A DNA stretch of 64,000 nucleotides, taken from contig JBBRTI010000002.1 in assembly GCA_038244585.1 (NCBI GenBank), positions 258-64,257 of the forward strand. The letters are read 5' to 3'. Numbering within the stretch: position 1 is the stretch's first letter; each line of letters starts with the position of its first letter. The notes below the pieces were generated by a model, which worked only from the letters and a program-made list of their open reading frames with translations, was not told the DNA's origin and made no database searches. Of the stretch, positions 16,476-31,719 are shown one piece after another. Position numbers and translations under genes: made by a program. This DNA comes from Candidatus Saccharimonadia bacterium (GTDB lineage: Bacteria; Patescibacteriota; Saccharimonadia; UBA4664).

Positions 16476-16742
16476 AACACAGTTCCACGGCCAAAATATC
16501 GTCATTATCTTGTGACATAACCTGCAAATATACATCGTTAACGTGTCAAAACGGTTAAGCTACGAATGACATTTTGAATTGACTTTAATCATAATTCATT
16601 GTAGCGTTTTATCCATGTAACAGACTCGATTGCCACAAGTGCTATCGGTCTGCGTGTTGTTTGACACATAAATTCCATTGTCCAAGTCGACAGCGGACGG
16701 CTAAGTGCTGTTCATGTCACAGCCTCAGAAAGAGGTGTCTCT

Positions 16743-18185
16743 ATGTTCAGTCCCTTTCAACGGCGTGATGTTGTCGACACAAGACGACAGAACCCGCAGC
16801 AGTATACCCAGCAGCGCCCCACACTAAATGTTTGGACGGTACTCAAACTGGCCGTGTATTCTCTGTGGTGGGTCGTCGGACTTTTCGTGGTTATGTCGGT
16901 GTTGATCAACCACGCTGCAGCACCCCTACAGACCTGGCTGTCGTCTCCAAGCGCGTCAACGCTGAGCGCCCTCAATAATGACGGCGACAGCACTACCTCT
17001 GCCCCGAGCAGTAACGCTGCGGCGGCTACGGCCGCCAAGCTCAGTTCATCGCCGACTGCTGTCGTCAACGATCAATTCCTGATGCAGCAATCCATGGATA
17101 TCAACGAAACGACGATCGCCCTACGGGCGAACCTCAATTCACCGACACCCAACCGGTTGTCTATCCTTGGCTACCCGGCGCTGAACCAAGCGCTCGACGG
17201 GTACCAAAAATCGATAGTGTCATTCAGGGACAACCAACCGTGGCTCTTCTGGCCATTGGCCTTGGTTGTGCTGGCGTTGGTGTTTCTCATTTTACCGGTA
17301 TCGCTGTCAATCCATCGTCAGCATGCCAAGGTCAACGGGCTGCCACCAAAGCATGTCCATCCCGCTACCGCGTTGGCGCTTTTGGCGGTGATTACCCTGA
17401 TGGTGATTACGCCGCTGCAGGCCATGTCGCTTACGCACACCCTGAGCGTTGCAACAGTCAGAAGCGCGTTCTTGGGTAGTTCGTTCAACGACCTCCAGCA
17501 GCGGTCACAGCGTGAGCTGATCGATGCTCCGGCGGCAGAAAGTATTCTCGGTCCTGCCGGGCGTACTGACACAGGTATCACCTATGTCACTGCCGTTCGC
17601 AACGGCGACCCCGTCACAGCCCAACAGGTGAAGGCTTTTGCCCACGAGAAGGCGACGAACCAGACCGCTATCGCGGTACCGGCTTCCTCGCTTATTCACA
17701 CCGAAGTTGTCAATATCCTGGAGCGTGTCACCTTGCTCGCGGCTCAGTTGGTCCAAGCCGTCCTCACTTTGCTGATGAGCCCCCTAGTGGCGCTCATGAT
17801 CATGCTGTTGGCGTTTTGGAGGAAAAACCGTAAATATGCTCTAGGGTATGTGGGGTCGGTCATTGTCCTGTTTATCGCGCTGGGGGTCTTTACTCTCGTC
17901 GGCAGCGGTATCGGTTGGTTTGACCTCTGGTTCAACTCAACCATGGCAGGTAGCGATCTAGGCTTCACGGCCGCCGTATTGACGATGCTCGCGTGGTTTG
18001 CGGCTTTCCACCTCTTGAGATGGATGGCGCTGCAGGCGCACGTGCGTGCCCGTACGGCCGTTCTCGAACGTCGGCAAGCTAAATCTATGGTTGACCATGA
18101 TGCCTCCTCACAGAGGCAGGTATTGGGTAAGTCACAGGTCAAGCGGCTGGCCGGGAGAGCGTCAGCCCGGAAGGGGCCCTCATGA
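16743..18185 (+). CDS. polytopic membrane protein, first gene of the T4SS-like cluster (function unknown)
   Basis: Multiple TM helices and a Ser/Ala-rich extracytoplasmic loop. Its stop overlaps the next gene start. Confidence 0.5.
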   Translation: MFSPFQRRDVVDTRRQNPQQYTQQRPTLNVWTVLKLAVYSLWWVVGLFVVMSVLINHAAAPLQTWLSSPSASTLSALNNDGDSTTSAPSSNAAAATAAKLSSSPTAVVNDQFLMQQSMDINETTIALRANLNSPTPNRLSILGYPALNQALDGYQKSIVSFRDNQPWLFWPLALVVLALVFLILPVSLSIHRQHAKVNGLPPKHVHPATALALLAVITLMVITPLQAMSLTHTLSVATVRSAFLGSSFNDLQQRSQRELIDAPAAESILGPAGRTDTGITYVTAVRNGDPVTAQQVKAFAHEKATNQTAIAVPASSLIHTEVVNILERVTLLAAQLVQAVLTLLMSPLVALMIMLLAFWRKNRKYALGYVGSVIVLFIALGVFTLVGSGIGWFDLWFNSTMAGSDLGFTAAVLTMLAWFAAFHLLRWMALQAHVRARTAVLERRQAKSMVDHDASSQRQVLGKSQVKRLAGRASARKGPS

Positions 18186-18937
18186 CGACACTTACGGATC
18201 AACGTAGTGCAGTCCAGGAGGCATCGGTTGCTCCCGGCGGGTCGTCATTCGTGACGGTCCTGCTGGGAGTGATCGTCATGATCCCAGTCCTGTTCGGATC
18301 GGGTTTCGTCTCGGTCGGAAACATCCAGATAGCCTCCGCTACCGCGGCGGCCAAGGACTTTCTTGCCTTTGCCATCCAGGCCCATGAAGTTGTTCCCGGC
18401 ATCACGACGATTCCGGGTATTGCCAAGGACGGTGCAGCCAAGCCGAAACCGGCAACGGCTGTACCGACCTCCGGCAACTACGGGTGGACTGATGCCGGCT
18501 CAAGCTGGCATTCCAAGCTTCCGTCCGCCGCTGGTCCCTTCATTGGGATTATCGAAGACGCGGCTAAAAGCAAAAACGTCGACCCGCGGCTGGTGGCGGC
18601 CTTGTTTTGGTATGAATCCGGATTTCAACCCAGGATATGCTCAGGCAAGGGTGCGTGCGGCCTCGGCCAGCTGATGCCAGGAACCGCCACTGGGCTAGGC
18701 GTGACTGATCGGAGTGATCCGTATCAGAACGCACAAGCCTCGGCTAGGTACATCAGGATTCAGTTGAACCGTTTCGGCCGCCTAGACTATGCTCTGGCCG
18801 CCTATAACGCGGGTCCCGGAGCCGTGACAAGATACGGTGGTATACCTCCGTATCCAGATACTATCAGGTATGTTCCTGATGTAACGAGAATATTTGTCAA
18901 GCTCGGCGGCAAAGTGTCTAGCGGAGCTAAGCGATGA
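18182..18937 (+). CDS. membrane-anchored lytic transglycosylase (SLT domain), VirB1-like
   Basis: FWYESGF carries the catalytic Glu. GLGQLMPGTATGLGV and ALAAYNAGPGAV are also present. Confidence 0.75.
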   Translation: MTTLTDQRSAVQEASVAPGGSSFVTVLLGVIVMIPVLFGSGFVSVGNIQIASATAAAKDFLAFAIQAHEVVPGITTIPGIAKDGAAKPKPATAVPTSGNYGWTDAGSSWHSKLPSAAGPFIGIIEDAAKSKNVDPRLVAALFWYESGFQPRICSGKGACGLGQLMPGTATGLGVTDRSDPYQNAQASARYIRIQLNRFGRLDYALAAYNAGPGAVTRYGGIPPYPDTIRYVPDVTRIFVKLGGKVSSGAKR

Positions 18938-19740
18938 CTACGGCCACCGAGGTCAAAGCTCCGCCAGAGCCGCTCGTGGGCCAATCGTCGCATCTTGTGA
19001 CCGTTATACTGTGCGGCGTGGTCATGATTCCTTTTGTCCTTGGGCAATCAAGCATATTGCCTCTCGGCTCTATCCAGAACCTGACGCTGAGCTCGCTGGC
19101 GGAAGGACCGCTGGCGGCCCTAATTAAGGCGCAAGCGGAAATTCCGGGAATCGCTCCTAAAAACCCCGTCGCACCCAAAGCTAATGGCCAAGGCGTCAAA
19201 GCCCAGGGTGTGACAGGGGCTAGCCTGATTGCTAATGGCACGGTCAAGACGACGACCGGTGTAGGGTGTAACCCAGCTCCGGATCTGGCATCTAACCAGC
19301 TATATAGCCAGGCAATCGATTGGCTGGTTGAGATGAATCAGGCAGGGTTTACTGTTCGTGTGAGCTGTGTCCGATCGGGGCACAGCCGAAACGTCCATAA
19401 CTCTGACAATATCTCACTCCATACCGTCTGGCGGGCGTTCGACGTTGACCAAGTCAATGGTCAGCCCGTTTGCGCCCGCTACGACAGAAACAGTTGGTGT
19501 TTGGAGGTTCCTACTCCAACGCGTCAGCTGATGACCTGGATCAAAGACAGGCCAAATTCTCAACTGCCGTTCGAAATCGGCGGACCGCACTTCTTTCCGC
19601 CAGGGTCGCGTGGCAAGTCCGCCGGCCCCGGTCGAATTCGCGGTGGTCCCTTCTTTACTAACCATGACCATGAGGATCATCTACATTTCGGCTTTAAGCC
19701 ACGCGATAACCAAGCGCCGGCTGGCGGCTGGATGAGCTGA
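18934..19740 (+). CDS. membrane-anchored peptidase M15-like (LAS metallopeptidase) cell-wall hydrolase
   Basis: SGHSRNVHNSDNISLHTVWRAFDVD contains the SxHxxGxAxD pattern. DHEDHLHF supplies the H-x-H. The N-terminal approximately 60 aa are paralogous to the preceding gene. Confidence 0.55.
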   Translation: MTTATEVKAPPEPLVGQSSHLVTVILCGVVMIPFVLGQSSILPLGSIQNLTLSSLAEGPLAALIKAQAEIPGIAPKNPVAPKANGQGVKAQGVTGASLIANGTVKTTTGVGCNPAPDLASNQLYSQAIDWLVEMNQAGFTVRVSCVRSGHSRNVHNSDNISLHTVWRAFDVDQVNGQPVCARYDRNSWCLEVPTPTRQLMTWIKDRPNSQLPFEIGGPHFFPPGSRGKSAGPGRIRGGPFFTNHDHEDHLHFGFKPRDNQAPAGGWMS

Positions 19741-19756
19741 GTCTCGGTTCTGCTCT

Positions 19757-19792
19757 TGACCCGCCCGGTATATCCGGGCGGGTCATTTTTCT
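19757..19792 (+). terminator. rho-independent terminator (gacccgcccgg-tatat-ccgggcgggtc-attttt)
   Basis: Perfect 11-bp GC stem plus a T-run. Confidence 0.85.
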
Positions 19793-19902
19793 TATATTGC
19801 CTACTTTGCGGAATAATGATGAAGCTATAGCGTACGTTTGTGTTGGTGCACAAATATGGGTTTATACAAATGGCCAAAAGTTATTACTTGAAACGCAAAA
19901 AA

Positions 19903-19931
19903 AATGTGATTCTTGACATACAAGAACAATG
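19903..19931 (+). promoter_or_regulatory. sigma70-type promoter TTGACA-N17-TAAAAT
   Basis: TTGACA at 19903-19908, a 17-nt spacer, TAAAAT at 19926-19931. It lies in an AT-rich intergenic region upstream of the 20108 gene. Confidence 0.5.
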
Positions 19932-20107
19932 ACCCTAAAATAGACAAAACAAACAGAGGTGGAACTTGTAGAAAACTGCCTCTCGGAAATCTGTTTCCGG
20001 AAGACAGGTTTCAGCAAGTTCGTTTCAGTATAGTTGTTGAGGCCATGTACCTTGAATCGTAATACTCATCAATCCCTCTATGACTGAACCCGCGAAAGGG
20101 GACACTC

Positions 20108-22324
20108 ATGTCAGGCAACGACGTTGCGCATCGCAGTGGCAACACAGGAGGTTCCGTGTCCCGCGCGAGCGGATCCGACCCGGCCCATACACCCCGCCAG
20201 GATCTGGCGGATTTTTCGAGTCTCAGGAAGGGCGGCTTCGGTTCGGCACTCATGCGCCTGTTCAAATCTGAGCCGGTACCAACGACCGACACGTCCGCTG
20301 CAAGGCTGGCGCTCAATTTGAACGAACCGCTGAAGGTACTGGTCTTTGGGCTCAACCCCACAGACTGTACCAACACCCTGAGGATCCTCTCTCTGATCAT
20401 GGCGGCCAGACGCCGCACTTTGGTCGTGGCGGCCGACATGAAGGCCAACCGTGGATCACTCGTCTCTTTCTTCCCACAGATGAAAGCTCACAGTTTGAAT
20501 GTTGCGCACCTTGCCGACGGCATCCGCAACAGTCTCGACGGTCCCATAAATCGGGCACTGTCGCTGAGCGAGCTGAGCAGCTACGGAACTGTCCTTCCGA
20601 ATCTTCTGCTTTTGGCAGGAATCGAAAGTGACGACTTTGGCGTTGCTCTGTCTCCTCAGCAGATTGACGACATCATGATGAACTCCGGCCTCATTGCCGA
20701 CCACATCATCGGTGACGGCGGCTCCATCGTGGACTCAACGTTTTTCCAGCTCACTCAGCGTTTCGATCACCTGGTGCTCGCGACAGATCTGTCGGCGCCC
20801 TCCGGCAATGCAACGATTGACACGTTCAAGCGTCTTCACGACGGCTTGAATAACAGGTTGTATGGGCCTCAAGCGTCGACAGTGACTAGGGAAGACGCAG
20901 CGAAAATCGAGCACACCAAGCGGCTCATCCAAGAGGCTCGCCTTGTGACCTACTTCAAGAACAGCGATACGGCTCATCGGCCTGATGATGTCACCAAACT
21001 CCTCGCGACTACCTGGGCAAAGGCCTTCGGCGTGAGTGGTACGGAGGTATACGGAGTCAACGACGACAAGCACTTGGCTGACATACCGCTCGACTTGAGC
21101 AAGGCGCCCGGCGCCATGAATGTTTTTCAAGGTTTGGCAGCCGACCTGGTCTATAGTGCCTTCCTCGAGCAGAACAATGGACTCAGCCCGTTCACCGAGG
21201 CAGTTCCGACATTGTCGGAGCAACCTCATTTTTCGCAGGTTCGCTCGTTGAGAGCTTACACTGTGCAGCCGGACGCGCCTGAGGTCCATGAACCTCTCGA
21301 ACCAAGGCGTTACAACGGCAACCGAATTACCGTCGTAAGGCGGGCGGTGACAGCTACTATCGCCGTTACGGCAACAGGTCTGAGTATAGGTTTGCCTGCT
21401 ACAAACGCCTACGCCGATGGAAACTCTTCATCGACCCCGTCAGTGTCGGAAGGCTCAGACGGAAATGATTCCGCCGGTATGGTCTCCGTCCCTCCGTCGG
21501 AAGCGCCTCAAGCGAAACAGGCAAAAGCGCATGTTCCGTCAAATGACGCCGGTAGTCCATCGCTGTCGGCGTCCGATCAATCGGGCACGGACAGTTCCCA
21601 AGGCAGCGTCCAGCTGCCCGCGGGCGACGCGCCAGGCGCCGCTCCGGCGACGCCGGCTGAGGCAACACGGCACATCGAGTCAAAGGTCAACACGTTGCCA
21701 CCGCAGGATTCCAAACCTGCGGCCGACGTACCTAAGGTCGAAGTGCCCGCATCGTTGCCCCAAGATGTGACGCCTTCGCAAGCTCAAGCCGTCGAGCCGC
21801 CAGCAGTGGCAGCCGCGCCGGTGCCACAGGCCGAATCACATGCTCCCCGGGCGTATGTGCAGACTGTACAGCCTCCGGCCAGCGTCGATCGGCACGCCAA
21901 CATGGTTCGAGAGGTTGAGACGCAGGCGTCCCCCAGAGCGGCAGCTCAAGCTCCGCAACAGGTCACGAATGCAGCAAAGCCGGCTGTTATGCCCGCCGCA
22001 CCGCACGTCAGTACGACGTCGGTGCCAAGCACCAGCACCAGCCACTCGGCTTCCGTTGCCACGACACCTTCGGTTTCCGCTGCTCCTGACTTGTCAGTCA
22101 ACGGCCCGATCGTCGGTACGGTGTTCGTCACCACGGGTGACAGTCTCTGGCTGATTGCCACCAAGGCTTTGCGTACCCATCTGGGCCGCGAGCCGTTGAA
22201 CGGCGAAATTGCTGAGTATTGGCGCATGATTTACGCGGTTGTCGCTAACCATAAGGTTATCGGCAGCGACCCCGACCTGATTCGACCAGGTCAGGAGCTC
22301 GTTCTCCCGCAATTCGGTCGTTAA
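20108..22324 (+). CDS. bitopic protein with a cytoplasmic degenerate ParA/MinD-like domain (no Walker A lysine), TM, Pro/Ala/Ser-rich linker and C-terminal LysM domain
   Basis: LKVLVFGLNPTDCTN...TLVVAADM...DHLVLATDL resembles a deviant SIMIBI fold lacking a GKT P-loop. The hydrophobic helix is VTATIAVTATGLSIGL. The C-terminal GDSLWLIATK...IRPGQELVLPQ is LysM-like. Confidence 0.5.
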   Translation: MSGNDVAHRSGNTGGSVSRASGSDPAHTPRQDLADFSSLRKGGFGSALMRLFKSEPVPTTDTSAARLALNLNEPLKVLVFGLNPTDCTNTLRILSLIMAARRRTLVVAADMKANRGSLVSFFPQMKAHSLNVAHLADGIRNSLDGPINRALSLSELSSYGTVLPNLLLLAGIESDDFGVALSPQQIDDIMMNSGLIADHIIGDGGSIVDSTFFQLTQRFDHLVLATDLSAPSGNATIDTFKRLHDGLNNRLYGPQASTVTREDAAKIEHTKRLIQEARLVTYFKNSDTAHRPDDVTKLLATTWAKAFGVSGTEVYGVNDDKHLADIPLDLSKAPGAMNVFQGLAADLVYSAFLEQNNGLSPFTEAVPTLSEQPHFSQVRSLRAYTVQPDAPEVHEPLEPRRYNGNRITVVRRAVTATIAVTATGLSIGLPATNAYADGNSSSTPSVSEGSDGNDSAGMVSVPPSEAPQAKQAKAHVPSNDAGSPSLSASDQSGTDSSQGSVQLPAGDAPGAAPATPAEATRHIESKVNTLPPQDSKPAADVPKVEVPASLPQDVTPSQAQAVEPPAVAAAPVPQAESHAPRAYVQTVQPPASVDRHANMVREVETQASPRAAAQAPQQVTNAAKPAVMPAAPHVSTTSVPSTSTSHSASVATTPSVSAAPDLSVNGPIVGTVFVTTGDSLWLIATKALRTHLGREPLNGEIAEYWRMIYAVVANHKVIGSDPDLIRPGQELVLPQFGR

Positions 22325-22327
22325 GAC

Positions 22328-22369
22328 CGTACGTATTCACCCCGGGGCCGTGACGGCCCTGGGGTGAAT
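22328..22369. repeat. long near-perfect hairpin (17-bp stem, gtattcaccccggggcc / ggccctggggtgaatac)
   Basis: The inverted repeat lies directly after the stop at 22324. There is one G-U position and no U-tract. Confidence 0.6.
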
Positions 22370-22500
22370 ACACCAACATTACCCGACTCAAGTATCGACT
22401 GATTTTTGAGCCGGGCCGTGTTACAGATAGCCGGCCGGCCCGCGGGAGGTTTCCCGCAAGTTCTTTGCCAATTGAATCGATACACAATTCGGAGGTTCTA

Positions 22501-23559
22501 ATGAGTTCGCTCATAGCTCGCGTGCTTCATGGGCCGCCTCAGGCGACTCAAGATGAACTGATTCACAAGGCCATAACGGCGGCCGCTCAGGCACCACTAG
22601 ACCAATACGAAGACGAAGCGAAAGGTCATTTCACCGCTCTCAGGTATAACAACCGCTTTATGAAGGGTCTGTTCTTCACTCTGGGACTCGTCGTTGCCAC
22701 CGCAGCATCCGCAGCCTACATGAACAGCGTAGGTAACAGTGTCACGGCATACCGCACGGACACTAGCCACGATATCAGCGGCTTGCGTACGGACTTTAAC
22801 CAGTTCAGCGCCAGCTGCGCGGGCACCGGATCATGCAAGACATTCCCATTTAACCGCGCCTCTCAACTAGCTAACCTTTATGCCTTTGAATGCTTTACCT
22901 ATTCCGCTCAAAGCGACTCAGGTGAGCAGTCAAAGCGGCTGAAAAATGTCGCAGGCAGTAATGGGTCATGCGGCTGGGTAGGCCAAGGCAATGCGACGCC
23001 GGCGCTGATTCAGGTTAACAGCCCGTATCAGCTCAACGTCCCAACGCCTGATGGTGCCAAAGAAGACCCAAGTTTGGGATTGGCCGGAGTGCAGATTGCG
23101 CTTAGCGGTCAGTCGGATGTGATGAACTTCGTGGTGCCGGTTTCGGCTACTTCAAAGGGGGTTAACATCGCGGCCCGGGGTGCCCTTTATACCTCGCCGC
23201 CAAACACGATAGTTCGCAGTTGTCAGCCCGATGCGCTATTTAGCTCAACGACTGATATCCAGACACGCCTTCAACGAATGGAGACGGGTCGGGCAAACTC
23301 ATCGGACACAGACCCTAGCGATTACCTTATGCCAGGGAAGAACATCGGCCGTTTCGGCCCTAGTATCACGCGTATTACGGTTCAGGATGTAACCGTGTGT
23401 CAGGGACAGTCGGACGTCATGCGCAACGTAGTTGCGCATGAGCGGTTCGCCGGCCCCACACCGGGAAGCAGCTTTGACTTCACCTACGCCTACGTGATGC
23501 AAAAGACCGACAAATGGTACGTCCAAAGCTGGGGCCCCGTCCTGGGGCAAGACCAGTGA
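22501..23559 (+). CDS. membrane-anchored extracytoplasmic protein, function unknown (T4SS-like cluster)
   Basis: ATG at 22501 follows GGAGG. It has an N-terminal signal anchor and a Cys-containing soluble domain. Confidence 0.45.
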   Translation: MSSLIARVLHGPPQATQDELIHKAITAAAQAPLDQYEDEAKGHFTALRYNNRFMKGLFFTLGLVVATAASAAYMNSVGNSVTAYRTDTSHDISGLRTDFNQFSASCAGTGSCKTFPFNRASQLANLYAFECFTYSAQSDSGEQSKRLKNVAGSNGSCGWVGQGNATPALIQVNSPYQLNVPTPDGAKEDPSLGLAGVQIALSGQSDVMNFVVPVSATSKGVNIAARGALYTSPPNTIVRSCQPDALFSSTTDIQTRLQRMETGRANSSDTDPSDYLMPGKNIGRFGPSITRITVQDVTVCQGQSDVMRNVVAHERFAGPTPGSSFDFTYAYVMQKTDKWYVQSWGPVLGQDQ

Positions 23560-23586
23560 CATCCCACATGAAGCGAGGTGAATACC

Positions 23587-24024
23587 ATGGCGCAAAACGG
23601 TGCCGGCAGTGAGACGGAGATAAATCCGCACACCGATGGCTACGTCTTTACTGATCACAGCTTTAAGGAGCCGCGTGATCTCGTATTTTGGGGCGGCGGC
23701 TTTACGAAGCTTCAACAGGCCGTCTTCGGCGGCACGGTGTTTTTCAGCGTCTTCGTGCCCTGTCTGCTTGGATTCCTAGTATGGAACTATTTCTATCTGG
23801 GGGTCGCGCTCACGATGCCATTGGGCATCTTCTTCGGGTACCAAGCACTAAAGGCCGTTGATCCGCCACTCCGGTTCATGAACACGCAATGGCAGCATCT
23901 TGTTGCCACCCTGCGCTACCGGCGTCAACCAGAAGCCATCGTTGATGGTCGCGCCTATACCCCTGGAGCAACTATCCGCACGGCCATCCTGTTCGTCCAA
24001 TCGAGTAAAGGAGTGAGGCAATAA
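23587..24024 (+). CDS. VirB3/PrgI-like small membrane protein (TM hairpin) immediately upstream of the VirB4-like ATPase
   Basis: ATG at 23587 follows GAGGTG. A hydrophobic hairpin (FFSVFVPCLLGFLVWNYFYLGVALTMPLGIFFGY) is present. Its stop overlaps the ATPase start. Confidence 0.4.
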   Translation: MAQNGAGSETEINPHTDGYVFTDHSFKEPRDLVFWGGGFTKLQQAVFGGTVFFSVFVPCLLGFLVWNYFYLGVALTMPLGIFFGYQALKAVDPPLRFMNTQWQHLVATLRYRRQPEAIVDGRAYTPGATIRTAILFVQSSKGVRQ

Positions 24025-26609
24025 TGTCTCTGTTCACACTGCGGCAACAGCCGCACACCTTCACGGATCAGTTTACCAAGCCGACACGGCGAATGCGTGC
24101 GCAGGCGAAGTACGCAGATCTGAACGCCGTATCTCCCGCCTCTGACATCGACGGCAGTTTTGTAAAATCGACTGAGGACAAGGTATGGGAGGTCTGGGTT
24201 CGTGTGAATCTCGTCCATGCCATTGACAACCTCAGCGACTCAGACCTCGACGACGTCTACGCCAACCATATCCGCATCCTTGATCCGCTTCGGGGCTGTG
24301 ACATCCACTTGGAAGTCCTGCCGGTTCCGGTTGGATTCGACGAACGCTACGCGCGTTTTCGCCGTTTTGAGCTGGATCCGACAAACCCGGTACGTGATGA
24401 CCCAGCATGGCAGTCCATGCGGCATGATCGCGTGGCGGACATGGCTGCCTGGCTTCAGGACGCCAACGGCGACTATGAATCCCGGGCTTATCTGGGCATC
24501 CGGCTTTACGGGGCAAAACCCGACCCGAGCCTGAGCGTTGATTCGTTCTGGCAGATGTCGCTGGAAAAGCGGTTCTATCTTGAGGATCCCGACAACCGTT
24601 GGCTCATCAAGCCGGCGGCCGAGGTTCTCAACCGCCTAGCGCCCGCTTGGGGCGAAGGAGTACAGCCCGTCTCTAGGGACGAGTTGGACCTGATCCTGTC
24701 ACTCACCAACTGGCCTGGCCAGGTTGACGTCCAGCGGCCAAAGCGGCTCGCCGGCATCCACGAAGGCGAGCGCAAAGAACTGGCGTTCTATGGGCGTAGC
24801 GTCTACACGGACGTAGCCCCCGGCACCCTACGGTTCGACCGGTACGGCCAGAAGTCGTACGCGTCATTCCTGCCGATTGCCCGTATCCCTCACATCGCTC
24901 GATTTGTTGCCAAGCAAAGCAAGGATTACTCCTTTCTCACGACAAGTTCCGGCCGCCGGATCAGAATCAGCTGGCGCTTTACCTACACCTCGAACAAGGC
25001 CCTCATCGAGAGGGCCCGGCTCAGCATGGTAAAGGCTCAGCATGACGCCGAGTACCTGGATACGCATGAGGGCCAGGCCAGCGACAGGAAGAACAATATC
25101 GAAATCGCATCGACCTTTTACGAGTATTTGCGTGACGGAGGCTACGTCCTCGTCGGCATACCGCTGGTAGTAATTACCGGCGACACGTTAGAGGAGGTTG
25201 AGATTGAGCGCAACAGCCAAATGGCCATGTTGGGCAGGGACGCTGAGCTTTTCATCGACCCTCGGTATCAGATGATCTTCTACGAGCTTAGCAGGCCCGG
25301 CGCGCGTTTAAACTGTGCGGCGTACGTTCAGTACGTCTCGCCTCAGACGTTTGCTCGCGGCATGCCGTTCGTGACGTCGGCGCTCAGCATCCAAGGTCCG
25401 GATCTGTTGGGCTGGGTCAAAGGCCGGGAGCTCGTGCCCTATACGGGCGCTCTCGACCTATCGACTCTGCTCCCCGGACTTAACACTGCACCGGTCGCAA
25501 TTTATAGCGGCAACTCGGGCGGTGGCAAAACCACCACTATCATCAACGATTTGGTGGCTGCCATCGAACGAGGCGGGTACGTCGGGTTCCTCTACGAGTT
25601 GCTCAAGCAGGACTCACGCAACCTCCTGGGCCCCGATTTCAACGGCATCAAAGTGAGATACTGGGAGCTGGACAGCCAGCCCGGTTTGCTCAACCCGGCG
25701 GGACTAGCCCCGACACCAGCACAACGCGTAGACCTTGTATCAAGGTTCCTGCGTAACTGCTGCGGTAACCAGTGGAACGCAGAATGGCTGCCCGACCTTC
25801 GGGACGCCGTTAAAGACGCCCTGGTCGAAGCTGACAAGAGTGGAAAGCCGAAGCCCGATCTGTTCCGGGTGTTGGATTTCCTGATTGATCCCGAGAAGAA
25901 ATACAGCAACGGCAGGGCCATCGAATCCATTCTGGCGGAGCTGCGCGGAGATACCGTCGTCGCCCCGATCTTCTTCTCGGACCATCATGATTCGGATCTG
26001 ATTGCGTCAATGAGCCAACCTGGCTTGAACGTGATCATGCAGAAGAACTTTGATATCCCGAAGAACATGACCGAAGATAAGTACACCGTCGACAATTGGC
26101 TGGCGCTGGCCGGTTTGGACCTCTCGACAATGCTCGCTCACAAGGTGGCATTCGACAAGAACGTTCGCACCATAATCGGCACCGTGGAATTCCACCAGTC
26201 GTCCAGCCTACCGACCACCCAGTCGATGGTCGATGGCCTCGCCCGCACCGGGCGAAGCGAGAAGACGGTCACGGCTTACGACAGCCAACTCTGGGGCGAT
26301 ATGCCTGACTCGTTGAGGGAACAGGCAACGACGAAACTCGGCTTCCAGCCGGAAGGCGAGGGAGAAGCCAAGCTACTGCTCAAAGAGATGGGCCTGGATG
26401 CTGATGACCTACGAAACCTTCGTGACGTCATGAACATGGCAAACGCCAAGAACGCTCAGAGCGATGAACTCAAGGGCACCGCCATGGTACGACTGCCCAA
26501 CCGGGAAGTCGCCAGGGTACAGGGCCTTCGCTGGTACGTCGGAACCACTCGGACCACCGACGGCCCAGTTCCAAACAACCCGCAGCACGTCTCGGAAGGA
26601 GACAGATAA
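24024..26609 (+). CDS. VirB4/TrbE-family type IV secretion ATPase (861 aa)
   Basis: Walker A is GNSGGGKTT. Size and position are typical of VirB4/TcpF-like ATPases. It sits in an operon with VirB3-, VirB6- and VirB8-like genes. Walker B was not confidently located. Confidence 0.65.
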   Translation: MSLFTLRQQPHTFTDQFTKPTRRMRAQAKYADLNAVSPASDIDGSFVKSTEDKVWEVWVRVNLVHAIDNLSDSDLDDVYANHIRILDPLRGCDIHLEVLPVPVGFDERYARFRRFELDPTNPVRDDPAWQSMRHDRVADMAAWLQDANGDYESRAYLGIRLYGAKPDPSLSVDSFWQMSLEKRFYLEDPDNRWLIKPAAEVLNRLAPAWGEGVQPVSRDELDLILSLTNWPGQVDVQRPKRLAGIHEGERKELAFYGRSVYTDVAPGTLRFDRYGQKSYASFLPIARIPHIARFVAKQSKDYSFLTTSSGRRIRISWRFTYTSNKALIERARLSMVKAQHDAEYLDTHEGQASDRKNNIEIASTFYEYLRDGGYVLVGIPLVVITGDTLEEVEIERNSQMAMLGRDAELFIDPRYQMIFYELSRPGARLNCAAYVQYVSPQTFARGMPFVTSALSIQGPDLLGWVKGRELVPYTGALDLSTLLPGLNTAPVAIYSGNSGGGKTTTIINDLVAAIERGGYVGFLYELLKQDSRNLLGPDFNGIKVRYWELDSQPGLLNPAGLAPTPAQRVDLVSRFLRNCCGNQWNAEWLPDLRDAVKDALVEADKSGKPKPDLFRVLDFLIDPEKKYSNGRAIESILAELRGDTVVAPIFFSDHHDSDLIASMSQPGLNVIMQKNFDIPKNMTEDKYTVDNWLALAGLDLSTMLAHKVAFDKNVRTIIGTVEFHQSSSLPTTQSMVDGLARTGRSEKTVTAYDSQLWGDMPDSLREQATTKLGFQPEGEGEAKLLLKEMGLDADDLRNLRDVMNMANAKNAQSDELKGTAMVRLPNREVARVQGLRWYVGTTRTTDGPVPNNPQHVSEGDR

Positions 26610-26611
26610 TC

Positions 26612-26839
26612 ATGGACATCAAAACTAGCATGCTCGCTGGTGCCGTCCTCTTGCTTATCGCAGGGACACTCATTATCGCCATCAGCGCATACTCGCGTGC
26701 TGCAAAAGGTGACTCGCGCGCAGTGACCGCAATGTTGAAGGACGGAGTTATGATTACCGCTTTCGTCCTCCTCGGCGTCGGATCCGGCCTCACAATAGCA
26801 ATCTTTGCGGTGTTTGACGCCACAAAGATCACGCACTAG
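26612..26839 (+). CDS. small two-TM membrane protein (75 aa), pilin/TcpE-like candidate
   Basis: Its start lies 3 nt after the ATPase stop. There are two hydrophobic helices. Confidence 0.45.
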   Translation: MDIKTSMLAGAVLLLIAGTLIIAISAYSRAAKGDSRAVTAMLKDGVMITAFVLLGVGSGLTIAIFAVFDATKITH

Positions 26840-27010
26840 CCGTATCGATTCATCTGCTCCACCCTCGGTCACAACTGACTGAGGGTGGAGCCCCAACCAT
26901 AGTCTTCATCGGACGATGACACCTGCGGTTGGGGACATTATCGTTCTCAAAGTACATCGACAATCTACGTTTCATTTTCATCCTACGAGCTCGGTTAGGA
27001 GCTGATCAGC

Positions 27011-29095
27011 ATGAAGTTTATCTTTCTCCGTCGGGCCGTAATGGGTCTGATCACGTGCGCAATTGCCCTTTTGTCAGTTATCGGACCGGCGATGCCGGCA
27101 TCAGCCGCCGTCGACAGTCCGAGCGATTTGACAGTAAAGTCACAGGTCAGCAACCTGTCCCAGGCAACAGTCAGCTGGAAAGCCCCATTAACGGTTAGGC
27201 AGATTACGGCCTACCGCTTGCGGCTCGATGGAACTGCGGTTGCAGAATTCAAGCTAACGAACGGTGAGATCAAGACGTCCTATACTATGGACGCAACACC
27301 TTTGCGTGCGGGCGGCCAGTTGACAGTGTCTGCTGTCTTCGATCTCCTTCAGGAGGGCACTGCCTCTCAGGCAATCACGTTACCGCCAATGCCCACAGGT
27401 GCATTGGTGACAGCTGATCCGGCCGGATCCAAGGATACCTATCAGCCCAACGGATTCGGCGGCAGCATCACAACGCCGCCTTACAAGGATAGTAATCAGC
27501 CGGCTGCCAACGAAGTCTACGGCAACAAGTCGGGTATTCTTCAGCTAATCACTACAGCCGATCCGAAGACAGACTTTGCAGCCTACCACATCAACATGGT
27601 CATATCATGGGTCTGGATGGCAGGCGTTATGCTGTCGCTCTTTGCCATCAGTGCTCTGAGCTGGTCGTTGATAACAAGTGTATATTCCGGTTTGGCTGGA
27701 GCCATCACGATGGTTATTACCAGTTTCGGCGGCAGTTACATGAGGGTGCTTCTCGGGCTTGGAGTAGTCATCTTGACGGCCGGTTACGCCTACTGGATGG
27801 CCCGCAAAGGCACACGGTCAATTTCCAACATGATGAATATGTCCATAGTCGTTTTAGGAGCCTCATTACTGCTGTTTGGCAACTCGACGGCCATAGTACC
27901 TGCGGTAGTCAACTCCCCGCTGGTATTTACTCAGGGGACAATCACCGTCATAAACGGTTGGGTACCCCCGGGCGTAAAAACCGCTGATTACAACCTGAGC
28001 GTCAAACCGACGTTCAATGGCAGTATCCTGGAACAAGGCGTGCGCCGTTACGCCTACGAGAATTGGCTGGAAACGACCTATCCCGGATACTGTGTGATGA
28101 ATTTCGGTGATCTCGCCTGGGCAACAACCACGCGCGTTGTCGATCCCAGTGTGCCAAAGGGCTACAACAATCTCACATTTTGTGAGTACCTGCTCAAGGC
28201 TCAGACTAGTAACAATACGGCTGCCCTCGACAAGCTCCGCAGCTACGACACCCAAGCGGGCTTAGGTGCTCATACGAGTGGCCTCGTTGAGAAGAGCTCC
28301 CAGGAAGCATGGGCCTTCTATCAAGGCACAAGTCCCTCGTCTATGGGTCTGCGGGCTGGCTATTCGGTCGCTCTGCTGGCATCAAGCTTTTTAAATGCGG
28401 TTCTGATCGTTGTAATCGCGCTGCTTGTAGCCTTCTCCGTCATGATGATGGGGTATGGCATGTTGTTGCTTGCCGGCATACTCATTGTGTCGCAGGCGCC
28501 ACCTCTACTGGACTATCTTAAGGACCAGCTCCGCTCGATGTTTGGTCATACCTGGCGGCCAGCGCTTGGTATGGGCTCAATCATGGTTGTCGACCGCATT
28601 ACACGAGTAGTGTTTACTACGACCGGTCCGACGGGCTGGCTTGTAGCAGAAATACTACGAGGTCTGGCCTGCATAATTTTGGTGGCATATGCCTTTCACC
28701 GCTTCCGTGGACATGGACATCGACGGGCTGGTGCTATCTCTGAGCCGGCAACACGGCCTCAGTCAGAGTACCGCGAACCAGTGGTGAATGTGCCAAGGTC
28801 GCCTTCGAACGGTAGTTCTGTCCGACCGGCATTTTCGGCCCCCGCCACGGTTACCCCGCGCCCTGCTATTAGGGCCGGCGCCCTGTCGGGAACGATTGTT
28901 CCAGTCTCTCCAAGCATGATGCGGCCGAGACCGGTTTCACAGCCTCAGGTTATCCGAGGCGAGGTTCTCACCTATGAGGTGGTGCGACCGGAGGTGGTCC
29001 GAAAGGCCCCTCAGGTAACCGGTTCATCAGTTGCAGCGCGAAAGGCCATTACCGGCTCATCGCGCGCCCTGCCTTCGGCACCATCCAGGCGCTGA
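27011..29095 (+). CDS. VirB6/TcpH-like polytopic membrane protein with signal peptide and Pro/Ser-rich C-terminal tail
   Basis: Signal peptide, a soluble N-terminal domain, then 6 or more TM helices. The low-complexity tail is Arg/Pro-rich. Confidence 0.45.
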   Translation: MKFIFLRRAVMGLITCAIALLSVIGPAMPASAAVDSPSDLTVKSQVSNLSQATVSWKAPLTVRQITAYRLRLDGTAVAEFKLTNGEIKTSYTMDATPLRAGGQLTVSAVFDLLQEGTASQAITLPPMPTGALVTADPAGSKDTYQPNGFGGSITTPPYKDSNQPAANEVYGNKSGILQLITTADPKTDFAAYHINMVISWVWMAGVMLSLFAISALSWSLITSVYSGLAGAITMVITSFGGSYMRVLLGLGVVILTAGYAYWMARKGTRSISNMMNMSIVVLGASLLLFGNSTAIVPAVVNSPLVFTQGTITVINGWVPPGVKTADYNLSVKPTFNGSILEQGVRRYAYENWLETTYPGYCVMNFGDLAWATTTRVVDPSVPKGYNNLTFCEYLLKAQTSNNTAALDKLRSYDTQAGLGAHTSGLVEKSSQEAWAFYQGTSPSSMGLRAGYSVALLASSFLNAVLIVVIALLVAFSVMMMGYGMLLLAGILIVSQAPPLLDYLKDQLRSMFGHTWRPALGMGSIMVVDRITRVVFTTTGPTGWLVAEILRGLACIILVAYAFHRFRGHGHRRAGAISEPATRPQSEYREPVVNVPRSPSNGSSVRPAFSAPATVTPRPAIRAGALSGTIVPVSPSMMRPRPVSQPQVIRGEVLTYEVVRPEVVRKAPQVTGSSVAARKAITGSSRALPSAPSRR

Positions 29096-29230
29096 ACGTT
29101 GCTTGAAAATCCAACGTATGCCCCAGCTTGCCATTATGGCAGGCTGGGGCCCCAACCTAAGTACTGAACGATCGGTTCAGTCATTAGGCTGGGACCTTCC
29201 CAGGCAGTTCATTCACATCCAGGAGTCAAA

Positions 29231-29854
29231 ATGGCCCGTAAGATAAGGCGCATAGTTTTTGTGCTGTTTATCTTTGTGGGCCTGTTCATCGCGGCTCACA
29301 AAGGTTCTGAATATGGAACTAGCAAGGCGAAGTCACTGATACTGCCGCAGTCCGCCCCCAGCGGCATAGATCAGCTCCCCCCCGGAGTTGAGCCGCCTCT
29401 GCCGCTACCCACCCAGCTCTATCAGAGTGAGGGAAAGCCGTCCTGCGACAAGGTTATTGCCTCGGGACCGCTTTCAGTTATCGGGCATGTCCTTTCGGTC
29501 TATGCCGGGTTCCCGAATGCGTCGTCTAATCGCGACAATGTGGCAATTCTGGCGCAACTCCGCCGCGACGATAGTATCTCGGAAGGCTTGTTTAATCGTA
29601 CCAGCCAATCTTGGCTGAATACGACGTACAAAGCGACGTTGGCAGTGTCGGCGACAGTCAGCAGCTGCGAAGTCGGGGAGCGCTCCACGCTAGCCCAGCA
29701 GCTTCTCATCAACGTGAAGCTGAAGACGACGGACGGTAATCGGCCGGACCAACTGCTTCCGTACTCTGTTGATGTTGTCCGTTTACACGATTCCTACATG
29801 GTCACGAATATCGGTCCGCAGCAAATAAGTGTGAGCGGCGGTGGCTCGTCATGA
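29231..29854 (+). CDS. bitopic membrane protein, possible VirB8/TcpC-like component
   Basis: A single N-terminal TM precedes an approximately 170-aa extracytoplasmic domain. Assignment rests on size, topology and position only. Confidence 0.35.
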   Translation: MARKIRRIVFVLFIFVGLFIAAHKGSEYGTSKAKSLILPQSAPSGIDQLPPGVEPPLPLPTQLYQSEGKPSCDKVIASGPLSVIGHVLSVYAGFPNASSNRDNVAILAQLRRDDSISEGLFNRTSQSWLNTTYKATLAVSATVSSCEVGERSTLAQQLLINVKLKTTDGNRPDQLLPYSVDVVRLHDSYMVTNIGPQQISVSGGGSS

Positions 29855-31638
29855 AGCGCCAGCTAGTAATCGCAGTCGTTAAGGCGGCGAATGGCAATGC
29901 TAAGCCGCTTCTGAACCTGGCACTGCCGACCATAGTAAAAACAATTGGCGTAACGGCCTCCGTCGGCATGCTGTTTAGCGGCACTGCGCTCGGTGCGGCC
30001 GTTGTGGCCGGCGGGTTGTTCGGTCAGCAGGCCGTTAAGATCAACGGCACTCAGAGCTGCACGACCCAAACCGTAGTCACGGGAGTCATAACTCAAGACG
30101 TCCCCGCCCTATATCGTCCGATTTTTACTCAAGCTGCCGCAGCCCGCGGCACCGACGTGAATTTGCTGGCGGCGATATTCTACGTTGAACATGGACGTAG
30201 CTATCCTGAGCCGCCGCCGCCCTACGGGAAAGGCAAGGCTTGGGCCGTATCTTCGGCCGCCGCTATGGGACCATTCCAGTTCATACCTTCGACGTGGCAA
30301 AGTTTCGGCGTCGACGGGAATAATGATGGTCAAATTGACCCCAACGACCTAACCGATGCAGCCTATTCGGCCGCAGGCTTTCTGACATCGCTCGGCGGAA
30401 AAGCCGGCGTCCCGCCAGGGGATCCTGCTAAACCGTACGACAAGCCGAGCATTGTCAACGTTATGGCCTCGTATAATGCTGGGCCGTCAGGCAACTTTGG
30501 CAACGGCGAAACGCAAGCCTACATCAAAAACGGGTTTGCGTACTACACCAAGCTTACTAACGGACCCTTGGCCAATCCACTGGCTGACACGACGATATCG
30601 GAATGCACGACGACATTTGAAGCGTCAGACACTACGCAATCGCCGAAAGTCTTTGCCTACGGCAGTACGATGCTCGCTGGCATATCCGCCGGCGGGCTCG
30701 GCACAAATCTGTCGGCTCAATCAGTTCAATTGAACGTGTCGGCTTCACCTGGTATGACGCTTGATGAGGCGGCCTTAGGTTTGTCGAATCTTGCGCCTAA
30801 GCTAGTTGAGGCTAAAGCGATCATACTGTCCTTTGGGGACGCGGCGATAGACGGGACCGGAGCTGCCTACGTGGCGAAGGTGAAGTCAATTGTCGCTAAG
30901 GTGCGGGTTATAAATCCAACTGCCAATATTTGGTGGGTCGATGCCAACACGCGGACGCCCGATTCCATACTTGACCCGCTACTGACGACAGCGGCCGAGG
31001 CCGGCGGTTTCAAATTGGTGTATTGGAAACGCCTAGCCAGACTAAGTGCCACTTCCGGTGGACCCAGCTGGACTGCAGAGGGTAGTAGCACGCAGCTGTC
31101 CGGCACAGGAGACCTAAAGGTCGCGGCATTAGTTGGTCAGTCCGTAATGGAAGACCTGACGCTAGCCGATAAGGTCTACGTCTTGCGCGGCAACGCCAAG
31201 TATTTGGCCATGCAGGTATTGGTGACTACGAATATCAGACTTAGCGGCCGCTTGGTACGCCAAGACTTAACTCTTGCCAGTCAAGGAAAGCCAGGATCAT
31301 CAGGCGTTCCGTTGTCGGCTAATATGTTGGCAATCTTATTGGAGCTTGCCAAGACGCGTCAAGTAACAGTTACGGCCATCGAGAGTGGTGGAACTGGTCA
31401 TGCTGGCGGCAGTAATCACTATGATGGAACGGCCTTGGATATTGATATCGGGCCGGCCGGAAATGCGGCGATAGTCACGCAGCTTTACAATCATCGCGCT
31501 GATTTAGGCATCGGCGACCTGATCTACAGCCCGATGCCGGCCGGTACCACAACTCTCAAGCACGGCATCGCGCTTACTTACAATTCTGCGACAATGAGCG
31601 AACACACGAACCACGTGCATTTCAGCTCGAACAAATAG
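29851..31638 (+). CDS. bifunctional cell-wall hydrolase: MltB-like lytic transglycosylase (SLT_2) plus C-terminal M15-like peptidase motif
   Basis: FYVEHG carries the catalytic Glu. GPFQFIPSTW...DGNNDGQIDPNDLTDAAYSAAGFL is family-3 LT-like. The C-terminal SNHYDGTALDIDIG (SxHxxGxAxD) and HTNHVHF complete the M15-like signature. Confidence 0.65.
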   Translation: MKRQLVIAVVKAANGNAKPLLNLALPTIVKTIGVTASVGMLFSGTALGAAVVAGGLFGQQAVKINGTQSCTTQTVVTGVITQDVPALYRPIFTQAAAARGTDVNLLAAIFYVEHGRSYPEPPPPYGKGKAWAVSSAAAMGPFQFIPSTWQSFGVDGNNDGQIDPNDLTDAAYSAAGFLTSLGGKAGVPPGDPAKPYDKPSIVNVMASYNAGPSGNFGNGETQAYIKNGFAYYTKLTNGPLANPLADTTISECTTTFEASDTTQSPKVFAYGSTMLAGISAGGLGTNLSAQSVQLNVSASPGMTLDEAALGLSNLAPKLVEAKAIILSFGDAAIDGTGAAYVAKVKSIVAKVRVINPTANIWWVDANTRTPDSILDPLLTTAAEAGGFKLVYWKRLARLSATSGGPSWTAEGSSTQLSGTGDLKVAALVGQSVMEDLTLADKVYVLRGNAKYLAMQVLVTTNIRLSGRLVRQDLTLASQGKPGSSGVPLSANMLAILLELAKTRQVTVTAIESGGTGHAGGSNHYDGTALDIDIGPAGNAAIVTQLYNHRADLGIGDLIYSPMPAGTTTLKHGIALTYNSATMSEHTNHVHFSSNK

Positions 31639-31639
31639 C

Positions 31640-31675
31640 TCCAACGGCCCGCACGAATCATTCGTGCGGGCCTTT
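31640..31675 (+). terminator. rho-independent terminator (ggcccgcacgaa-tcat-tcgtgcgggcc-tttt)
   Basis: Perfect 12-bp stem plus a T-run, directly after the stop at 31638. Confidence 0.85.
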
Positions 31676-31683
31676 TACTTGCA

Positions 31684-31712
31684 AGAAAAACCCCGCCTAA
31701 GCGGGGTAACAG
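31684..31712 (-). terminator. minus-strand terminator (ccccgc-ttag-gcgggg-ttttt) for the convergent gene
   Basis: The reverse complement gives ccccgcttaggcggggttttt, downstream of the minus-strand gene end at 31720. Confidence 0.7.
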
Positions 31713-31719
31713 GGCCAAG

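Follow-up and report, generated by a model that had tools for sequence, protein, structure and literature searches.

Can a gene cluster laid out like a conjugative type IV secretion system (T4SS) be part of the fixed chromosomal equipment of a bacterium, and what would it then be used for? This question is raised by positions 16743-31638 of the 64-kb stretch of DNA analyzed here (contig JBBRTI010000002.1; hereafter the window). In this region, the list of open reading frames (ORFs) and the hydropathy profiles define eleven ORFs, all on the plus strand, with overlapping or nearly touching boundaries. An earlier note on this DNA had described a ~15-kb cluster of T4SS-like genes transcribed entirely from the plus strand, and the eleven co-directional ORFs agree with this description. 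The genes that it listed are present, while three others, encoding proteins of 738, 364, and 480 residues, had gone unmentioned. We consider, at a probability of roughly two in three, that the cluster encodes a domesticated, non-conjugative envelope conduit that derives from a monoderm T4SS and is used at host contact. Its T4SS-type identity is well supported and so is, within the visible sequence, the conclusion that it is not an integrative and conjugative element (ICE).

A T4SS-type core around a VirB4-family ATPase

The gene at 24024..26609 (plus strand) encodes a full-length VirB4-family ATPase of 861 residues with a non-canonical Walker B motif. AAA_10 is the sole Pfam match (E = 1.6e-9) and TcpF the sole NCBIfam match (E = 7e-5), the latter scoring 20.8 bits where the curated cut-off is 1100. 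An AlphaFold2 model was built with the alignment of relatives and reached a predicted local distance difference test score (pLDDT) of 84 and a predicted template-modeling score (pTM) of 0.82. In a Foldseek comparison of this model with the PDB, the top matches are full-length TrwK/VirB4 of R388 (E = 6.9e-24, ~860 aligned columns). HerA-type helicases rank well behind (E about 1e-9), and FtsK or VirD4 chains are absent from the top 50. The Pfam match and the Foldseek ranking rule out an FtsK/SpoIIIE, ABC, or HerA identity. The assignment to the VirB4 family made in the earlier note is thereby confirmed, since the comparison with FtsK/SpoIIIE and ABC proteins came out for VirB4 over the full length of the chain, and the Walker A sequence that it had read, GNSGGGKTT, is found at residues 496-504.

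The Walker B aspartate is replaced by Val721 in this protein (IIGTV-E722; residues 720-722, window positions 26182-26189), with the Walker A lysine and Glu722 retained. The Asp-to-Val/Ile change is common to the window VirB4 and its four closest clade members. As these are only 28-43% identical to the window protein, the change appears to be old and maintained. The more distant relatives have DE at this position in 19 of 20 cases and EE in the remaining one. In two clade members, the conserved arginine of the GRS motif is also missing. The conserved exchange poses the biochemical question of whether hydrolysis is needed at all.

The ATPase is a genuine full-length VirB4 of a very rare lineage. 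In a word-index search of 5.8 billion clusters with the ATPase as query, a single relative (43% identity) was retrieved besides the protein itself. Of 1.84 billion representatives searched with HMMER, 117 matched at E <= 1e-3 and no more than 11 at E <= 1e-30, and a profile of 13 ATPase relatives retrieved six proteins. Scans with the ATPase of genome contigs, by a first two-sequence alignment, and of metagenome contigs yielded nothing, as did a profile concatenated from six cluster proteins, which was probably swamped by long or low-complexity candidates.

We aligned 25 ATPases representing the window clade and its wider relatives. AAA_10 is matched by 19 of them (best E = 4.9e-105) and TcpF by 16 (best E = 1.5e-193). 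The named wider relatives are conjugation ATPases of Peribacillus, Sporosarcina, Nocardiopsis, Nocardia, and Solirubrobacteraceae; outside the close family, the nearest named matches are TcpF-type proteins of Firmicutes and Actinobacteria.

The VirB6 position of the cluster is occupied by a ConG/TcpH-like polytopic protein of 694 residues (27011..29095, plus strand). It consists of a signal-like N-terminus, an FN3-like ectodomain (weak fn3 match, E = 0.0055), a membrane domain, and a Pro-rich tail, and its orthologs are 27-39% identical. Using hhalign, we compared the family (seven orthologs) with the polytopic proteins encoded after VirB4 in three canonical clusters of the Tcp type and obtained a match with a probability of 94.5% (E = 7.7e-8, 161 columns); the global alignment gave E = 3.1e-7 over 542 columns. 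The 694-residue protein has no direct match to the TrbL/VirB6 family of Pfam, and we therefore state its homology to the ConG/TcpH-position protein. The VirB6-like polytopic protein proposed in the earlier note is borne out by this alignment with the canonical clusters.

The core ends with a multidomain wall hydrolase of 595 residues (29851..31638, plus strand), similar to VirB1, CwlT, and TcpG, in which an anchor is followed by an SLT_2 domain, a middle domain, and a C-terminal LAS/M15-like motif. Pfam matches SLT_2 (E = 1.4e-10) and SLT (E = 2.3e-4) to its N-terminal part, and this domain is homologous to the hydrolases of two canonical conjugative clusters, L003 and L015 (E ~1e-11).

Two canonical conjugative clusters, from a member of the Solirubrobacteraceae (L003) and from Nocardia (L016), served as controls for the gene order. 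In L003, the transfer genes encode, in this order, TcpC, a small protein, TcpE, VirB4, a 769-residue polytopic protein, and an SLT/M23/CHAP hydrolase. The element also has genes for a coupling protein (TrwB-like) and a relaxase (Replic_Relax) 5-8 kb downstream, and for ParB, ArdC, SSB, and a primase upstream. The core of the Nocardia cluster is the same. The window agrees with both position by position, as expected from the Tcp-type gene order that had been claimed for it, and its order also corresponds to the series conB-conC-conD-conE-yddF-conG-cwlT of ICEBs1.

Eight related loci (L001, L002, L005, L007, L008, L009, L011, and L013) all carry the same eight-gene core, down to ~25% VirB4 identity in the aligned loci. 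In order, the core genes encode a ParA/CbiA-like protein (377-782 residues), a bitopic protein (300-412), a two-helix protein (139-176), VirB4 (835-964), a second two-helix protein (73-109), a polytopic protein (636-790), a second bitopic protein (201-252), and a wall hydrolase.

A chromosomal locus, probably of a small-genome Patescibacterium

Outside the cluster, the window consists of ordinary chromosomal DNA. Its genes include those for a P-type ATPase, DsbD/cupredoxin, ApbE, TrxB, an Asx-tRNA ligase, BipA, NusG-L11-L1, and L10-L7/L12, as well as DnaX, DnaB, RecR, CysS, and glycosyltransferases. None of the window ORFs of at least 100 residues (64 kb) matches a family of relaxases, VirD4/FtsK-type coupling ATPases, integrases, or transposases. 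Apart from chance-like short matches, the cluster is not flanked by direct repeats of 16 nt or more, and searches of the window for tRNA genes, rRNA genes, and Rfam families were negative. The G+C content is even across the cluster and its flanks (0.50-0.59). The flanks are syntenic with those of Patescibacteria group bacterium UBA5147 (L009) on both sides of the cluster, and also with L005. P-type ATPase and DsbD genes are common to the window and a Candidatus Saccharimonadia metagenome-assembled genome (MAG).

The same setting is observed in the relatives. A coupling protein or relaxase is encoded within 10 kb of the core in none of the eight related loci, where the neighboring genes encode tRNA ligases, MreB, trigger factor, ClpP, RecG, glycolysis enzymes, and cytochrome oxidase. 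An integrated mobile element is rejected on the uniform G+C content, the lack of att-like repeats, and the synteny of the flanks. A constant eight-gene core amid housekeeping genes points to a domesticated machine and not to an ICE. These data uphold the earlier note on two counts: the window is devoid of a VirD4/FtsK-like coupling ATPase, relaxase, integrase, and direct repeat, and the view of a chromosomal machine rather than an ICE agrees with the housekeeping flanks, the synteny, and the absence of mobility genes in eight loci.

A scan of GTDB species genomes with the VirB4 identified UBA5147 (44% identity) and a Candidatus Saccharimonadia bacterium (31%), and another relative of the ATPase is assigned to a Candidatus Saccharimonadia bacterium at NCBI. 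The cores of two relatives sit on contigs of 1.09 Mb (L007) and 0.84 Mb (L011). Most likely, the apparatus is vertically inherited, follows the Tcp/ICEBs1 design, and resides on the chromosome of a small-genome Patescibacterium, itself most likely a member of the Saccharimonadia; this placement follows from the relatives, above all from the flanking proteins shared with UBA5147 at 76-94% identity. The guess that the organism is an epibiont would fit its relatives, which are Saccharimonadia/Patescibacteria MAGs, two of them with contigs of 0.84-1.09 Mb. As a separate observation, genes for COX1, COX3, COX4, and UbiA (haem-copper oxidase) lie beside the core on the 840-kb contig of L011 (18592-22895), which is unusual at that genome size.

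The cluster and its flanks differ strongly in their divergence from UBA5147. Flanking proteins are 76-94% identical overall (Asx-tRNA ligase 84%, BipA 94%, TrxB 80%), against 44% for VirB4, 39% for the 694-residue protein, and 27% for the 207-residue bitopic protein of the core. The diverged island extends over ~16500-33460 and comprises the T4SS genes and three adjacent small membrane-protein genes, with 27-55% protein identity to L009. Nucleotide identity in the flanks is 76%, whereas within ~16.5-33.5 kb only short patches can be aligned, two of which are non-coding (19913-20012 and 22333-22484). Two readings account for this pattern: the island has evolved at a strongly increased rate, or a distant allele has replaced it at a fixed locus. 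Such rapid divergence relative to the flanks fits a role at the host interface and, with T4SS genes this diverged amid near-identical flanks, marks the locus as one that may determine host range or the course of an arms race.

Further subunits, operons, and regulatory sites

The first core gene (20108..22324, plus strand) encodes a ParA/MinD-like protein of 738 residues with a degenerate P-loop, recognized by an ortholog profile and hydropathy. The profile of the orthologs' N-terminal domains matches the ParA-family structure 3ea0 (E = 1.2e-7) and MinD (1ion, E = 2.8e-6), with structure matches ranging to 4e-5, and CbiA/AAA_31 matches are on record for the orthologs. An alignment of the family shows the deviant Walker A motif xKGGxGKT in the orthologs of L005, L007, L008, and L009. 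In the window (GLN--PTDCTNT; 20330-20400, residues ~75-98) and in L001 (GIE--PKQTTIA), the P-loop is lost, with a two-residue deletion and no GK[ST]. This suggests that the ParA-like protein of the window/L001 sublineage is a pseudo-ATPase.

In the window and UBA5147, the head protein continues with a weak hydrophobic segment (~413-431), a 235-residue linker rich in Ala, Ser, and Pro, and a LysM-like end, the LysM-like matches being weak (E = 0.008-0.04). In the other relatives, the tether is N-terminal or absent. From these features, the ParA-like protein is probably a positioning or scaffold subunit.

The VirB3/TcpE/ConD position is occupied by a two-helix membrane hairpin of 148 residues (23578..24024, plus strand), assigned by hydropathy and position. 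Its stop codon overlaps the VirB4 start by one base, which amounts to translational coupling, and the motif FERRF...GG.T is conserved in nine orthologs. A faint TcpE match is found in the L001 ortholog only (E = 0.056), and hhalign against TcpE-position proteins was negative. For the VirB3-like hairpin of the earlier note, the topology and the position fit, as does the coupling to virB4, and the faint TcpE match is the only hint at the family level; the protein is a candidate VirB3-like subunit.

Two bitopic proteins are candidates for VirB8-like subunits. The first occupies the TcpC/ConB position (22465..23559, plus strand) and has one transmembrane helix and a Cys-rich ectodomain. Every relative has an ortholog of it, 23-49% identical, in which cysteines are invariant. 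The ORF gives 364 residues from a TTG at 22465; the ATG at 22501 has a GGAGG 6 nt upstream and is preceded by a conserved non-coding box, so the TTG start is probably wrong and the product likely has 352 residues. Its similarity to TcpC falls short of significance (local E = 0.36 and global P = 0.0018 with hhalign), and the single-sequence AlphaFold model of the ectodomain is unusable (pLDDT 31).

The second bitopic protein (29231..29854, plus strand; 207 residues) is a candidate VirB8/NTF2-like subunit with an N-terminal anchor, a Pro-rich linker, and a domain of ~135 residues, and is kept at its position in all relatives at 14-28% identity. Its matches are sub-threshold: TcpC with a local hhalign E of 0.003, and PrgL (7aed) with E = 2.3 across the whole domain. 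For the VirB8-like bitopic protein that had been proposed, the single-anchor topology is confirmed in the 207-residue protein; the family comparisons gave nothing beyond these sub-threshold matches.

Directly after VirB4, hydropathy reveals a two-helix membrane protein of 75 residues (26612..26839, plus strand), in agreement with the small two-helix protein noted there before. All eight related loci have a counterpart of 73-109 residues at the equal position. The protein matches neither the pilin families PF18895 and PF04956 nor any other family, and a VirB2-like pilin identity is unsupported. Between this gene and the next, a hairpin with 16-nt arms is observed at 26856-26891, without a T-run.

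Profile searches of Pfam, NCBIfam, and the PDB with the 148-, 75-, 364-, 207-, 268-, and 480-residue families returned nothing significant, and hhalign of the two-helix and bitopic families against TcpC, TcpE, and the small proteins of the canonical clusters was negative or marginal.

The eleven genes form two operons, an upstream accessory operon of three genes and the main operon of eight, split by a terminator at 19757. The accessory operon is opened by a polytopic membrane protein of 480 residues (16743..18185, plus strand) with ~6 hydrophobic helices by hydropathy. It has no Pfam or NCBIfam match, and hhalign did not support its kinship with the 694-residue polytopic protein. An ortholog of equal size and position, 22-23% identical, is present only in the closest relatives, L001 and L009; the gene is not found upstream of the core in L005, L007, L008, L011, or L013. 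The accessory operon as a whole, with its genes for the 480-residue, SLT, and LAS-like proteins, is likewise confined to these two among the related loci.

The second accessory gene encodes a membrane-anchored lytic transglycosylase of 251 residues (18182..18937, plus strand) with VirB1-like function. It has a hydrophobic N-terminal anchor and a Pfam SLT domain (PF01464, E = 2.9e-23, residues 124-219), overlaps the upstream gene by 4 nt, and is 40-49% identical to its orthologs in L001 and L009. The third gene (18934..19740, plus strand) encodes a membrane-anchored protein of 268 residues, weakly assigned by its LAS/M15-like zinc-peptidase motifs (SLHTVWRAFD...HLH), of which S-x-H-x-x-[GW]-x-A-F-D and H-x-H are conserved in three orthologs. 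The L009 ortholog has a faint Peptidase_M15_3 match (E = 0.055). At the C-terminus of the core hydrolase, a similar motif, SNHYDGTALD...HVH, can be read off the sequence. No significant Pfam or PDB match to M15 was obtained for the 268-residue protein or for the C-terminus of the 595-residue protein, and no match is detectable between the two.

Of the three hydrolase genes named in the earlier note, the lytic transglycosylase is therefore secured by its SLT match. The M15 peptidase gene keeps its LAS-type motifs and has no match at the family level, and the fusion of a transglycosylase with M15 holds for the SLT_2 half, the M15 half being a motif. In L005, L007, L008, L009, L011, and L013, the hydrolase at the core end swaps domains while the membrane core is constant; the versions found are SLT_2 only, SLT_2+Glyco_hydro_3+Phage_lysozyme2, NLPC_P60, and NLPC_P60+Lipase_GDSL_2.

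Both operons end in a strong terminator on the plus strand. The first (19757..19785) has a 12-bp stem with 10 GC pairs followed by TTTTTCTT, and that of the main operon (31646..31672) has a 12-bp stem with 9 GC pairs followed by TTTTACTT. A convergent terminator of the minus-strand neighbor gene lies at 31707-31690. Terminator-like sites in total do not exceed chance (20 observed, 18.5 expected from shuffles), and for this reason only the hairpins at 19757-19785 and 31646-31672, with 12 pairs, 9-10 of them GC, and a T-run, are taken as meaningful. This agrees with the earlier placement of consensus terminators only at 19757 and 31640.

The main operon is preceded by a promoter-like site and leader (19913..20107, plus strand), with TTGACA-17-TAAAAT at 19913-19941 (11 of 12 consensus matches). 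TTGACA is invariant in the window, L009, and L001, and the leader is ~78% identical, although the surrounding coding DNA can no longer be aligned. The conservation to L009 and L001 at the DNA level covers the patch 19913-20012, which includes the first 70-80 nt of the ~165-nt leader. A possible GAGGTGG...CTGCCTC hairpin is observed inside the leader, for which Rfam gave no match.

A second structured element lies between the ParA-like gene and the 364-residue gene (22333..22484, plus strand). It begins with a hairpin at 22333-22371, whose 19-nt arms are 95% complementary, followed by a nearly invariant box. The element is 77% identical to L009 at the DNA level, while the neighboring coding DNA is not alignable, and RNAalifold finds six pairs with changes on both sides in the hairpin, in an alignment of only three sequences. 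Its possible roles are those of a processing site, an attenuator, or an internal promoter.

Several features elsewhere in the window deserve mention. Upstream of the cluster, 14488-14787 and 16206-16475 encode paralogous RRM-type RNA-binding proteins (RRM_1, E = 1.7e-21) whose genes are 73% identical at the DNA level in their 5' ends; homologs are found upstream in L009 and L011. At 1440-2554, a radical SAM domain is split over two adjacent ORFs, with residues 90-145 of the first corresponding to profile positions 6-66 and residues 3-87 of the second to positions 80-163. The split may reflect a frameshift, a pseudogene, or an assembly error. Ribosomal protein L1 (44306-45325; 339 residues) has an N-terminal extension of ~130 residues, and in the same region (44306-45325 and 45432-48797) the L11-L1 and L10-L7/L12 pairs are separated by genes for a cytidylyltransferase, a deaminase, and a thymidylate synthase. 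Finally, 41429-42904 encodes a 491-residue protein with an N-terminal zinc-ribbon-like CxxC...CxxC motif, a Pro/Ala-rich linker, and a polytopic membrane domain, without a Pfam match.

Proposed working, rival explanations, and known systems

In the working that we propose, the hydrolases, with two lytic transglycosylase domains and probably two LAS-type peptidase domains, would open the wall locally. The membrane channel would be formed by the VirB6-position protein together with the two bitopic proteins as candidate VirB8-like scaffolds. The VirB3-like hairpin would dock the VirB4 hexamer, which would in turn power assembly and/or substrate passage. The lineage-specific ParA-like protein, apparently membrane-tethered here and carrying a LysM-like wall-binding end, probably positions or scaffolds the machine. 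As no coupling protein, relaxase, oriT-type context, or integrase adjoins the cluster here or in any relative, we consider DNA conjugation unlikely. By analogy with Southlakia epibionticum, proteins or other molecules would more likely be moved across the envelope at host contact.

Five points weigh against this proposal. The taxon of the window is read from its relatives, no rRNA or tRNA gene having been found in it. A coupling protein or relaxase could be encoded elsewhere in the genome, of which 64 kb are visible. The function in host interaction rests on analogy. The labels VirB3-like and VirB8-like rest on position and topology, and the subunits concerned are without fold or family support. 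Finally, the altered Walker B motif, the GRS arginine lost in two clade members, and the lost P-loop of the ParA-like protein may point to a motor that is impaired or works differently.

Could the conduit instead serve import? Like ComB of Helicobacter or Ced of Sulfolobales, it might bring in DNA, nucleotides, or other host molecules, here as nourishment for an epibiont that is auxotrophic. Such a role would account for the lack of the export-specific coupling protein and relaxase, and the idea has already been raised for Saccharibacteria (PMC11665869). Among the 25 aligned ATPases, the CedB DNA-import model is matched by four distant members (best E = 3.2e-11), but the window ATPase matches TcpF and AAA_10 only. 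No ComEC, ComB, or Ced partners are encoded in the cluster or the window, and experimental precedent in monoderm bacteria is lacking. We consider import doubtful.

A working conjugation apparatus for DNA export, with coupling protein, relaxase, and oriT encoded elsewhere, is less probable still. It would agree with the closest non-Patescibacterial relatives of the ATPase, all of them conjugation ATPases, and with an architecture equal to that of conjugative clusters. Moreover, VirD4-like genes are distant from virB4 in most Patescibacteria genomes (PMC12102498), and only 64 kb can be seen here. Against it stand the absence of coupling protein and relaxase from the 10 kb around the core in the eight related loci and from the 64-kb window, and a chromosomal locus that is syntenic across deep divergence. 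Relaxases are also rare in Patescibacteria, with 109 in 3,035 genomes, and in S. epibionticum the remote type IV coupling protein (T4CP) is non-essential whereas the T4SS is essential (PMC12102498).

The eroded motifs (Walker B Asp to Val, loss of the P-loop), the rapid divergence relative to the flanks, and the missing mobility genes could also be read as signs of a decaying, non-functional remnant of a conjugative element from an actinobacterial host. This is highly unlikely, as all eleven ORFs are intact and tightly coupled, and the order of the eight genes and the protein lengths are kept in eight loci to ~25% VirB4 identity. The Walker B change is old and maintained in its clade, the promoter and leader are conserved, and the G+C content equals that of the flanks. 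There is equally little to commend a wall-remodelling or division-site complex, as opposed to a translocon, that would reuse a VirB4-like ATPase, a ParA/MinD-like protein, and hydrolases: three hydrolase genes, the LysM-like end of the ParA/MinD-like protein, and MreB and wall-related genes near the core in one relative (L013) would suit it, but VirB4, the VirB6-position protein, and the hydrolase have homologs in conjugative T4SS clusters, encoded in the matching order, and a hydrolase set that varies beside a constant membrane core is expected of an accessory wall-opening role.

The domesticated T4SS that we favor can be compared with several known systems. With the Tcp system of pCW3, ICEBs1, and Tn916 (MPF_FA), it shares the order of the bitopic, two-helix, VirB4, polytopic, and hydrolase proteins, and with Tcp-type clusters also sequence homology for the ATPase, the polytopic protein, and the N-terminal domain of the hydrolase. 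It differs in lacking a TcpA/VirD4-type coupling protein, a relaxase, and the ParB, ArdC, SSB, and primase cargo, and in its location outside a mobile element. Extra features of the window are the ParA-like gene, the 75- and 207-residue membrane proteins, and the loss of the Walker B aspartate; similarity of its proteins to TcpC and TcpE is below detection.

The same two-domain fold extends throughout the ATPase and TrwK/VirB4 of R388 (8rtd, 7o42; template-modeling (TM) score ~0.53-0.56), and the C-terminal domain reaches a TM score of 0.66 with VirB4 of Thermoanaerobacter pseudethanolicus (4ag5). In contrast, the sequence identity to these structures is only 10-15%, and the diderm components VirB7, VirB9, VirB10, VirB2, and VirB5 are absent from the window.

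ParA-like proteins, such as VirC1 of Agrobacterium and the ParA of the gonococcal genetic island, accompany T4SSs, and others, TadZ/CpaE, accompany Tad pili. As a lead only, the window shares with VirC1, the gonococcal ParA, and TadZ a ParA/MinD-family domain encoded together with a secretion apparatus. Unlike these, the window protein heads the operon, has a LysM-like end and a lost P-loop, and has no relaxosome to recruit.

The relevant biological precedent is the T4SS of S. epibionticum (SEML1_0006-0019), which transposon sequencing (Tn-seq) showed to be essential for growth on the host and which includes essential pilins (Wang 2023, PMC10633639). It resembles Gram-positive conjugative systems and is without a recognizable coupling protein or relaxase (PMC10633639); a genome survey reports a VirB4-associated TrsD homologue for the same species (PMC12102498). 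In that survey, VirB4 was found in 2,417 of 3,035 Patescibacteria genomes (Quiñonero-Coronel 2025, PMC12102498). Most of these VirB4s fall in one clade nested in MPF_FATA and are usually chromosomal and relaxase-less, and VirB2-like pilins occur near virB4 in 1,135 assemblies (PMC12102498). Relaxase-less chromosomal T4SSs in Patescibacteria have thus already been published, and what is new here is a differently built, rare version.

The window cluster and the S. epibionticum/Patescibacteria T4SSs have in common the chromosomal location in small genomes, a VirB4, proteins at the VirB3, VirB6, and VirB8 positions, downstream hydrolases, the lack of an adjacent relaxase or coupling protein, and a presumed non-conjugative role. 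They differ in construction. In S. epibionticum, a VirB4 of 612 residues stands beside a separate 293-residue hypothetical protein (SEML1_0009), whereas the window VirB4 is an unsplit chain of 861 residues. S. epibionticum further has a PrgI-family (PF12666) VirB3, a 1088-residue VirB6, an NTF2-like protein, a lysozyme, and six PF18895 pilin genes. PF12666, PF18895, and PF04956 are not matched in the window cluster, where small proteins were searched up to E = 5, and are not on record within 10 kb of the core in the relatives. The ParA-like head gene and the ICEBs1-like order belong to the window version.

These differences allow for an origin separate from that of the standard Patescibacterial T4SS, in which a TcpF/ICEBs1-type apparatus was independently domesticated, plausibly from host Actinobacteria, with a ParA-like protein gained, pilins dropped, and the NTPase sites altered. 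We put this forward tentatively, as a possibility that is on balance unlikely. If true, the locus would encode a fast-evolving host-contact organelle, perhaps with little or no ATP hydrolysis by VirB4. Few machines are known to be essential when Saccharibacteria live as epibionts, and chromosomal T4SSs without a relaxase are among them. A second version of different construction can naturally be compared with the first, and the features common to both are likely those that matter for host exploitation.

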